In this document: positions 18,660-56,492 of the stretch, in pieces | Layout of the letters: each line of letters starts with the position of its first letter | Numbering within the stretch: the first letter of the stretch is position 1 | Notes under the pieces: model-generated | The model's input: the letters and a program-made list of their open reading frames with translations, nothing else | What the model was told of the DNA's origin: nothing | The model's database searches: none | Assembly (NCBI RefSeq): GCF_024223415.1 | Contig: NZ_CP100500.1 | Strand: one strand, 5' to 3' | Source: Escherichia coli | GTDB lineage: Bacteria; Pseudomonadota; Gammaproteobacteria; Enterobacterales; Enterobacteriaceae | Length of the DNA: 64,000 bases | Made by a program: the position numbers and the translations under genes

Positions 18660-18735
18660 TGGCTCCTCTGACTGGACTCGAACCAGTGACATACGGATTA
18701 ACAGTCCGCCGTTCTACCGACTGAACTACAGAGGA
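18660..18735 (-). tRNA. asnV: tRNA-Asn (GUU)
   Basis: Reverse complement matches the E. coli tRNA-Asn sequence including CCA. Confidence 0.95.
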
Positions 18736-21068: not shown

Positions 21069-21144
21069 TGGCTCCTCTGACTGGACTCGAACCAGTGACA
21101 TACGGATTAACAGTCCGCCGTTCTACCGACTGAACTACAGAGGA
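21069..21144 (-). tRNA. asnU: tRNA-Asn (GUU)
   Basis: Identical sequence to asnV. Confidence 0.95.
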
Positions 21145-22892: not shown

Positions 22893-22968
22893 TCCTCTGT
22901 AGTTCAGTCGGTAGAACGGCGGACTGTTAATCCGTATGTCACTGGTTCGAGTCCAGTCAGAGGAGCCA
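22893..22968 (+). tRNA. asnW: tRNA-Asn (GUU)
   Basis: TCCTCTGTAGTTCAGTCGGTAGAACGGCGGACTGTTAATCCGTATGTCACTGGTTCGAGTCCAGTCAGAGGAGCCA. Confidence 0.95.
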
Positions 22969-37875: not shown

Positions 37876-37951
37876 TGGCTCCTCTGACTGGACTCGAACC
37901 AGTGACATACGGATTAACAGTCCGCCGTTCTACCGACTGAACTACAGAGGA
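37876..37951 (-). tRNA. asnT: tRNA-Asn (GUU)
   Basis: Identical to asnV/asnU. Confidence 0.95.
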
Positions 37952-38942: not shown

Positions 38943-39032
38943 GGAGAGATGCCGGAGCGGCTGAACGGACCGGTCTCGAAAACCGGAGTAGGGGCAACTC
39001 TACCGGGGGTTCAAATCCCCCTCTCTCCGCCA
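38943..39032 (+). tRNA. serU: tRNA-Ser (CGA)
   Basis: GGAGAGATGCCGGAGCGGCTGAACGGACCGGTCTCGAAAACCGG...CTCTCCGCCA, long variable arm, anticodon CGA. Confidence 0.9.
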
Positions 39033-46483: not shown

Positions 46484-47671
46484 TTAGAACTGGTAGACTA
46501 AGCCCACAGCAACGATATCATCGGTAGCGATACCGTTTTCTTTGTAGAAGTCGTCGTCGTTGTCCAGCAGGTTGATTTTGTAATCAACGTAGGTGGACAT
46601 GTTTTTGTTAAAGTAATAGGTCGCACCGACTTCAACGTATTTAACCAGATCTTTGTTTGCGTAGTGATGATTACCCTGGCTATCAAAGTTATCACCATTC
46701 AATCCGCCTAAATCCTTACCTTTAGATTGCAGGTAAGCGATGGACGGGCGCAGACCGAAGTCGAACTGATACTGAGCAACAACTTCAAAGTTTTGGGTTT
46801 TGTTAGCGATGGCATCAGCATCACCGTAACCAGTCATGTTACGGGTTTCAGCATACATAGCTGCTAAGTAAACGTTATTAGCGTCGTATTTAGCACCAAC
46901 GGTCCATGCTTCTGCTGTTTCACCGCCAGCAGTTGCATCGAAGCGATCTCCATAACGAGTGTTATGCAAACCTTTGTGAACCTGATTGTCAGTACGGTCA
47001 GAATTAGAATATGCAGCACCCAGACTTAAACCAAAGTCAAAGTCATAGGAAGTGGACATACCGTAACCGTCGCCGTTCTCTTTAGCAAGTTTACGGCCAT
47101 TCCCGTTACCTGAACCTTCTTGATCAAATAATCCGCTTTTCTCGTTGTTACCTTGATACTGGAGTGCAAAGTTCAGACCATCAACTTGACCAAAGAAACC
47201 ATTGTTACGATAGGTTGCTACGCTGTTAGCACGACCGTTCATGAAGTTGTCGGCACCAGCATAGGTATCGCCACCAAATTCTGGCAGCATATCGGTCCAT
47301 GCTTCGATGTCATATACGACACCGTAGTTACGACCATAGTCGAAAGTACCATTCTGACCAAAGCCTAAACCTGCAAATGCCAGACGCGTTGCGGTATTAC
47401 CTTTGTCGCTTTCAGGACCGTTTGCGCCAATGTTAAATTCCCACTGACCATAACCAGTGAATTGGTCAGCGATCTGAGTTTCACCTTTGAAACCGATACG
47501 GGCATATGACATGTCGCCATCGCTGCCAGCATCATCAGAGAAGTAGTGCAGGCCCGCTACTTTTCCGTACAAATCCAGTTTATTACCATCTTTATTATAG
47601 ACTTCAGCCGCATTTGCTGCGCCAGCAACTAATAACGCCGGGACCAGCATTGCCAGAACTTTTCTTTTCAT
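46484..47671 (-). CDS. yedS: general outer-membrane porin (OmpC/OmpF/NmpC family), intact
   Basis: 395 aa from [22 protein letters not shown]-terminal ...VGLVYQF beta-barrel signature. Confidence 0.8.
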
Positions 47672-48235
47672 TATGTATTCCCTTGTGATTATAATCTTCA
47701 TGGATATATCAATAAGTGCCGTTATCCAAAAAAGCACATTTGGATACTATTCTATGAAGTTCATTTTATTTTAAGGGTTACATGTAACAAATGTATTTAA
47801 AAGATTTCAAAATGTTTCCAATCTATTTAATATAATTCAGAATTATGAATTCTAGATATAAGCATTCATGAGATTTATAAATATATATCAATATGTTATG
47901 AGTTAATCGGAAAGATAGGGAGTATCAATGAGTGTTGCGCTAAACGGCTGGTGTGATCACGCGCATATTAATGAAGGCATAAAAAAAAGCCGGCATCATG
48001 CCGGCCCAAAAAATATAAACAAGACGATAAAAGGCTAATAACGGGGTTATCATGACACAGAAATCAAAAAAGGTATAATTGAATTCGGTGCTAATATATT
48101 GTTTAGGTGAATTAATAAAACCATTACCATAGATAATAATAAATCTTTATTGCTGTTTTTCCGGTAATTATTGCCATTGCGCAAAAATTATCTATTTGTT
48201 CAAAAAATGATTGAGTCTTGACTGGCTCATCCAAT

Positions 48236-48601
48236 GTGAAAAAATGTGACTTTTATCACATAATAGTACTAAGTCTGAATTTTCCGGGTTATCTCAAAAT
48301 GGAATACGGTTCGACAAAGATGGAAGAGAGACTCTCTCGCAGTCCTGGTGGCAAACTGGCTTTGTGGGCTTTCTATACATGGTGTGGCTATTTTGTCTGG
48401 GCAATGGCGCGTTACATCTGGGTGATGAGCCGGATCCCCGATGCCCCTGTGTCGGGATTTGAAAGCGATTTAGGCTCTACCGCGGGAAAGTGGTTAGGGG
48501 CACTGGTTGGCTTTTTATTTATGGCTCTGGTCGGGGCATTGTTAGGCAGCATTGCCTGGTACACCCGACCTCGTCCCGCACGTAGCAGACGCTATGAATA
48601 A
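48236..48601 (+). CDS. yedR: small inner-membrane protein
   Basis: 121 aa assuming a GTG start; two hydrophobic helices. Confidence 0.7.
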   Translation: MKKCDFYHIIVLSLNFPGYLKMEYGSTKMEERLSRSPGGKLALWAFYTWCGYFVWAMARYIWVMSRIPDAPVSGFESDLGSTAGKWLGALVGFLFMALVGALLGSIAWYTRPRPARSRRYE

Positions 48602-48640
48602 AAACTGCTAAGGTTGCGACTCTTTGGCAACGGAGCGCGT

Positions 48641-49336
48641 ATGGACGTACAACACTGGCAGGCACAGTTCGAAAACTGGTTGAAAAACCATCACCAGCAC
48701 CAGGACGCGGCCCATGACGTGTGTCATTTTCGCCGCGTCTGGGCTACGGCACAGAAGCTGGCGGCAGATGACGATGTCGATATGCTGGTGATTTTAACCG
48801 CCTGTTATTTTCACGATATTGTGAGCCTGGCGAAAAATCATCCACAACGGCAGCGTTCTTCAATCCTGGCGGCAGAAGAGACGCGTCGCCTGCTCCGTGA
48901 AGAGTTCGTGCAATTTCCGGCGGAGAAAATCGAGGCCGTTTGTCATGCCATTGCCGCTCACAGTTTCAGCGCGCAAATCGCCCCCTTAACAACGGAAGCT
49001 AAAATCGTCCAGGATGCGGATCGGCTGGAAGCCCTGGGGGCGATTGGCCTGGCGCGCGTCTTTGCTGTTTCAGGGGCATTGGGCGTGGCGCTGTTTGATG
49101 GCGAAGATCCGTTCGCACAGCATCGCCCGCTGGATGATAAACGCTACGCGCTGGATCATTTCCAGACTAAGTTGCTGAAGCTACCGCAAACCATGCAAAC
49201 CGCAAGAGGCAAGCAGCTGGCGCAGCACAACGCGCAATTTTTAGTCGAGTTTATGGAGAAGCTCAGTGCCGAACTGGCGGGGGAGAATGAAGGTGTCGAT
49301 CACAAGGTGATAGATGCGTTTTCACCCGCGGGATAA
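48641..49336 (+). CDS. yedJ: HD-domain phosphohydrolase
   Basis: 231 aa from the internal Met; HD motif ...YFHDIV. Confidence 0.85.
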
Positions 49337-56405: not shown

Positions 56406-56492
56406 AACACATCAGATTTCCTGGTGTAACGAATTTTTTAAGTGCTTCTTGCTTAAGCAAGTTTCATCCCGACCCCCTCAGGGTCGGGATTT
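56406..56492 (+). ncRNA. dsrA: DsrA small regulatory RNA (activates rpoS, represses hns)
   Basis: AACACATCAGATTTCCTGGTGTAACGAATTTTTTAAGTGCTTCTTGCTTAAGCAAGTTTCATCCCGACCCCCTCAGGGTCGGGATTT matches DsrA as recalled, including its terminator. Confidence 0.9.

Follow-up and report, generated by a model that had tools for sequence, protein, structure and literature searches.

The system closest to the locus considered in the present work is the small RNA RseX of Escherichia coli K-12, originally reported by Douchin et al. (2006). RseX is described as a 91-nt RNA that lowers the production of OmpA and OmpC and that came to light as a suppressor in the envelope stress pathway of sigma-E (PMC7648144, PMC8313858, both with reference to that work). 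Repression by RseX is Hfq-dependent (PMC8313858, PMC11979758); ompA, fimB, and ihfB are among its targets (PMC8313858), and fepA is repressed through the RseX terminator loop, with the involvement of Hfq and RNase E (PMC11979758). In wild-type K-12, RseX has never been detected; it appears only when H-NS is missing, and more strongly when StpA is missing too, a transcript of about 91 nt being visible on Northern blots in hns mutants. The site of pairing between RseX and ompA has not been mapped experimentally (PMC8313858).

We analyzed a stretch of 64,000 nucleotides of E. coli DNA (hereafter, the window), for which a preliminary description had pointed to an "orphan" terminator on the minus strand of the yedS-yedR intergenic region and had noted that a small RNA, rseX, is reported there in K-12. 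According to the data presented below, the hairpin is almost certainly the Rho-independent terminator of rseX, the gene for a 91-nt trans-acting and Hfq-dependent small RNA running from 48071 to 47981 on the minus strand. The identity, the boundaries, the terminator, the conservation pattern, and the in-silico complementarity derive from the present analysis; the Hfq dependence, the repression of ompA, ompC, fimB, ihfB, and fepA, and the silencing by H-NS are taken from the literature, and we infer that the allele of the window behaves like that of K-12.

Identity and genomic context of rseX

The gene lies between yedS (46484..47671, minus strand), an intact gene coding for an OmpC-family porin of 395 aa, which is located immediately 3' of rseX and shares its strand, and the divergent drpB (48299..48601, plus strand), which is the new name of yedR (PMC7648144). 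The start of drpB adopted here, ATG 48299, is the experimentally supported one (M22 in the former yedR annotation, giving 100 aa; PMC7648144); NCBI PGAP uses ATG 48320 (93 aa) in a near-identical strain. From the yedS ATG (47671) to the drpB ATG (48299), the true intergenic region spans 47672-48298 and is slightly wider than the interval originally assigned to it (47738-48235). Its AT-rich character was borne out, with a GC content of 22-38% over 47700-48300 versus 45-57% in the flanking genes. The yedS gene is intact in the window versus a pseudogene in K-12, and the locus is highly polymorphic: in other strains, yedS is 1059 or 1074 nt long or is truncated by IS3.

The reading of positions 47400-48700 placed the hairpin gccggcatcatgccggc at 47989-48005, exactly where it had been described, and the T-run said to follow it on the minus strand corresponds to eight A residues on the plus strand (47981-47988), directly before the hairpin. 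The absence of a minus-strand protein gene upstream of the hairpin also held, since only mechanical ORFs of 36-44 aa lie between the hairpin and drpB; moreover, the annotated near-identical genomes carry no listed gene in this interval.

The whole window was then scanned against Rfam 15 at gathering thresholds. The RF01401 (rseX) family matched positions 47982-48071 on the minus strand with 97.8 bits (gathering score 50; E = 3e-12), and the match covered the model in full (1-94 of 94). The AniS, Esr41, RyhB, and Bp1_781 families scored 21-24 bits on the same interval, far under their thresholds, and were rejected as sharing only the common terminator shape. Elsewhere in the window, the same database identified the DsrA small RNA gene (56406-56492, plus strand; RF00014, 102.5 bits), as well as four tRNA-Asn (GTT) genes, distributed on both strands and with equal scores (72.6 bits each), and one tRNA-Ser (CGA); the tRNA-Asn and tRNA-Ser genes are located at 18660-18735 (minus), 21069-21144 (minus), 22893-22968 (plus), 37876-37951 (minus), and 38943-39032 (plus).

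The comparison with K-12 that had been suggested led to the same family. The rseX gene of strain MG1655 (b4603, 2033649-2033739) is syntenic, being located between drpB/yedR and yedS and on the yedS strand; the K-12 gene order is dcm, yedJ, drpB (minus), rseX, the yedS pseudogene, and hchA, of which the window is the mirror image. The alignment of the two sequences revealed 92.5% identity over 106 nt, b4603 aligning base for base with window positions 47981-48071. Because the K-12 5' and 3' ends align to 48071 and 47981, respectively, rseX corresponds to 47981-48071 on the minus strand, a length of 91 nt by annotation transfer from b4603. Hence, the placement of rseX in this interval was correct, gene names and strand included, in view of the full-length RF01401 match and of the synteny with b4603; these two data also support the proposal of a small untranslated RNA encoded on the minus strand. 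In other words, rseX is already known, and the "orphan" terminator is explained as its 3' end.

Among about 57 records listed for the interval, rseX is named only in that of K-12 MG1655, and no feature is annotated over the rseX interval either in the other BLAST records listed or in five further annotated regions. A BLAST search of 5,426 complete E. coli genomes retrieved one match to the 106-base interval in each of 4,879 genomes; the missing rseX label is an annotation gap rather than an absence. NCBI PGAP leaves rseX unannotated, and because of this, the raw sequence or a standard annotation shows an unexplained terminator. Recognizing rseX prevents a false "novel sRNA" call, a point of little importance beyond correct annotation.

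Terminator, predicted fold, and conservation

A consensus scan of positions 47600-48400 retrieved a single terminator-like site, on the minus strand at 48007..47987, with nine pairs (six of them G-C), a loop of three, and the tail TTTTTTAT. The corresponding hairpin, GGGCCGGCAUGAUGCCGGCUU (47987..48007, minus strand), consists of a core GCCGGC/GCCGGC stem at 47989-48005 closed by the loop (A)UGA(U), and is followed by a U8 tail (47981..47988, minus strand) whose first two U residues are also counted in the hairpin by the scan. On the plus strand, the sequence continues after the hairpin with CCCAAAAAAT; this is therefore a one-way, minus-strand terminator. We take the U8 tail to be the 3' Hfq-binding element, as established for Hfq-dependent small RNAs, and the U-rich spacer UGUUUAUAUUUUUU (48008..48021, minus strand), which immediately precedes the terminator, probably belongs to the Hfq-binding module; the tail and the U-rich tract would thus provide the sequence features for Hfq binding.

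In principle, instead of terminating a small RNA, the hairpin might be a palindrome that arose by chance, or it might have a regulatory or insulating role upstream of yedS. The terminator scan, by itself, is not significant, one site having been found versus 0.5 ± 0.7 when the same 800 bases were shuffled, and the conservation extends 3' of the terminator at 87%, some of which may serve the regulation of yedS. Nevertheless, this explanation is highly improbable in the light of the full-length covariance-model match (E = 3e-12), of the K-12 annotation, which puts the 3' end of the RNA at the hairpin, and of the Northern blot transcript of about 91 nt in hns mutants (PMC8313858). The hairpin can be considered real because of the Rfam match and of its invariance across the genus.

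As for the 19 bases lying just 3' of the terminator (47962-47980, minus strand; ATGCCTTCATTAATRTGCG), their mean identity across Escherichia is higher than that of the rseX promoter, and they may form part of the control region upstream of yedS.

In the predicted fold of the RNA, a short tail at the 5' end leads into a hairpin (nt 20-36), and a single-stranded U-rich region (nt 37-64) separates this hairpin from the terminator (nt 65-85), after which come the U residues. The first hairpin (stem-loop 1, 48036..48052, minus strand), delineated from the fold, the alignment, and the pair counts, consists, in the window allele, of a 7-bp stem and a CCC loop. The fold has a minimum free energy of -19 kcal/mol (z = -2.2 relative to shuffled sequences), and 7 of 200 shuffled sequences fold as well.

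The distribution of the gene in the genus was surveyed by searching a single genome of each species for a sequence pattern. Of the 37 stretches matched, the seven belonging to Escherichia or other Enterobacteriaceae were submitted to Rfam scoring. The RF01401 gathering score was exceeded by six loci, all from Escherichia, and the family was thus retrieved above that score in E. albertii, E. whittamii, two other Escherichia species, and further E. coli; the remaining scored stretch, from Pluralibacter (L015), matched the pattern and gave no RF01401 match. The other 30 matches, from unrelated phyla, were taken as chance matches of an AT-rich pattern without Rfam scoring. An exact-pattern search of this kind would miss diverged homologues in other genera and says nothing about absence outside Escherichia.

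In the alignment of 12 Escherichia sequences, the mean pairwise identity is 62% in the 70 bases upstream of rseX, 83% in nt 1-11, 98% in nt 12-23, 53% in the hairpin loop (nt 24-29), 90% in nt 30-64, and 96% in the terminator. The RNA body is near-invariant across the genus, variation falling in the promoter, in nt 1-11, and in the loop of the first hairpin; selection on the core of an RNA gene is expected to give this profile. The core stem pairs and the loop of the terminator are invariant in all 12 sequences, in which only the two outer G-U pairs vary, and the tail consists of 7-8 U residues in all the relatives aligned. The pair counts on the same alignment revealed that 96-98% of the cells are paired and that no pair has changed on both sides; since the stems never vary on both sides, covariation speaks neither for nor against the hairpins.

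Another possibility is that the region encodes a small protein, either from a 37-aa sense ORF (48053..47940, with its AUG at nt 19-21 of the RNA) or from a 36-aa antisense ORF (47928-48038, plus strand). Both ORFs do exist, and the antisense one is preceded by GGGAG five bases before the ATG. However, the sense ORF crosses the terminator, so that it would have no stop codon in the RNA, and it lacks a Shine-Dalgarno sequence; single-base indels in the T-run and in the U-rich tract shift both frames, neither frame nor length is kept in the relatives, whose peptides range from 15 to 54 aa with unrelated C-termini, and neither ORF is annotated in K-12. The two ORFs were rejected on the basis of this lack of frame conservation, and a protein-coding function is in our opinion scarcely credible.

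Promoter region and allelic variation

The preliminary description had indicated positions 48010-48200 for a promoter search. The candidate rseX promoter is not spread over that range, and it would occupy about 48072-48110, immediately upstream of the start of rseX at 48071. Measured from the annotated 5' end, the candidate -10 hexamer (-12..-7 of rseX) is located at 48078..48083 on the minus strand and reads TTCAAT in the window and TACAAT in K-12 and most relatives; no base of a sigma-70 -10 element is more critical than the A at -11. In every allele, the -35 region matches poorly, and the consensus scan called no minus-strand promoter upstream of rseX, either in the window or in K-12. It may be, judging from these sequences, that the window allele is transcribed even less than that of K-12.

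On the plus strand, opposite to rseX, there is a near-consensus sigma-70-like site, ATGACA-16-TATAAT (48052..48079), with 11 of 12 consensus matches, which is also present in K-12. Its -35 element lies inside rseX (+14..+19) and its -10 element over rseX -3..-8; it is distinct from the mapped drpB promoter, which is located about 160-220 bases further on (PMC7648144). This site might compete with the rseX promoter.

These features leave room for a reading in which the sequence is that of rseX and the allele, without the critical A at -11, would have ceased to be transcribed and would persist as a relic, decayed or silent. The TTCAAT hexamer versus the K-12 TACAAT, the poor -35 match, and the lack of a minus-strand call would agree with it, as would the failure to detect RseX even in wild-type K-12 (PMC8313858) and the dispensability of the gene, about 10% of the complete E. 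coli genomes showing no match to the locus and strain P276M harboring a 7-nt deletion in the seed. On the other hand, the RNA body is intact and scores as high as that of K-12 (97.8 versus 97.7 bits), its strong conservation across species argues for continued selection, and the -10 box is itself deduced from the annotated 5' end, other alleles varying at -10 and -9 as well. Poor or absent transcription of this allele is a weightier qualification than the small-protein ORFs, but overall, we consider the relic reading unlikely.

Within E. coli, the promoter and the 5' third of rseX are far more polymorphic than the 3' two-thirds. Among the 4,879 genomes with the locus, the 106-base interval shares at least 99% identity with the window in 197 genomes and 90-95% in 4,509; over positions 48040-48141, which comprise the promoter and the 5' third, 150 genomes reach at least 99% identity, 147 genomes have 90-95%, and the other 4,582 have 60-90%. 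The window allele is therefore a minority one, found in about 3-4% of the complete E. coli genomes, strains PigCaeca_2 and N3 being examples. Its 5' end and loop share 91% and 83% identity, respectively, with those of E. whittamii versus 64% and 33% with those of K-12, which suggests, as far as sequence comparison goes, that the form common in E. coli is the derived one.

In addition to the 7-nt deletion (TTTATCG), which falls inside the predicted ompA-pairing stretch, the rseX copy of E. coli P276M (L003, 1512-1591; 59.8 bits) lacks 3 nt before the terminator and carries 2 additional nt close to its 5' end.

The minority, apparently older allele could, through its altered -10 box (T at -11), its 5' end, and its C-rich loop, change the expression or the target reach of RseX, and the conserved promoter-like site on the opposite strand might add to the silence of rseX by promoter competition; this scenario is speculative, and we deem it rather improbable. 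As an example, the duplex predicted between the window allele and the ompC ribosome-binding site is extended (nt 23-43), with a hybrid energy of -19.7 versus -16.4 kcal/mol. What is mildly new here is this minority allele, the TTCAAT versus TACAAT candidate -10, and the plus-strand promoter-like site over the rseX 5' end.

Predicted target pairing and comparison with known small RNAs

The pairing of RseX with its targets was computed, for both alleles, as a windowed duplex energy plus the opening energies, the start regions of 34 long ORFs of the window being used as controls; this procedure replaced plain RNAduplex, which ignores accessibility and returned meaningless whole-molecule duplexes. 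The predicted seed (nt 29-50, CGUUAUUAGCCUUUUAUCGUCU; 48022..48043, minus strand) is identical in the window and in K-12 and should be mostly single-stranded, its first 8 nt overlapping the 3' arm of stem-loop 1; its assignment as a seed is a prediction. In silico, nt 37-50 (GCCUUUUAUCGUCU) pair with positions -21..-7 of ompA (GAUGAUAACGAGGCG), with a total of -13.5 kcal/mol. For ompC, nt 22-44 of the window allele pair with -28..-5 (-11.6 kcal/mol in total), and nt 29-44 of the K-12 allele pair with -15..0 (-10.8 kcal/mol). Both predicted sites cover the Shine-Dalgarno sequence, and the pairing with ompA and ompC is better than that of all 34 control start regions (best control, -9.8). The neighboring yedS was also considered as a target and rejected, its values (-5.7 to -6.9 kcal/mol) falling within the background, with 7 of the 34 controls as good.

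According to this picture, RseX would use the region at about nt 29-50 (…GUUAUUAGCCUUUUAUCGUC…) to pair with the ompA and ompC mRNAs at their ribosome-binding sites; such pairing would block translation and promote mRNA decay, lowering the abundant outer-membrane proteins. The first two of these steps, that is, the pairing at the ribosome-binding site and the block of translation, are suggested by the complementarity and by the established behavior of this class of small RNAs. The terminator loop reportedly acts on fepA as well, and the AT-rich promoter would be silenced by H-NS/StpA, so that the gene would normally be quiet. For those working on RseX, the targeting core and the terminator are fixed across Escherichia, with polymorphism in the promoter, at the 5' end, and in the first loop; furthermore, some strains lack the locus or harbor a deletion in the seed.

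RseX resembles MicA, RybB, MicC, and MicF in being short, in acting in trans, in ending with a Rho-independent terminator and a U tail, and in its predicted pairing at the ompA/ompC ribosome-binding sites. It is unrelated to them in sequence, no Rfam match to those families having been found in the interval; moreover, it is silenced by H-NS instead of being controlled by sigma-E or OmpR (PMC8313858), and its predicted seed is internal and not 5'-terminal. Likewise, SdsR and ArrS are unrelated to RseX in sequence and repress fepA through their terminator loops, as RseX does through its own, which is intact and invariant in the window.

The closest relative remains K-12 RseX (b4603; RF01401), with which the window gene shares locus, orientation, length, and terminator, as well as an equal Rfam score, nt 12-23 and 30-91 being identical. 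The two differ at 8 of the 106 aligned positions, all located in the first 11 nt (UUUUUUGAUUU in the window versus UUUUUAUUAUU in K-12) or in the loop of stem-loop 1 (AACC versus GCUU), and their promoter regions share 85% identity.
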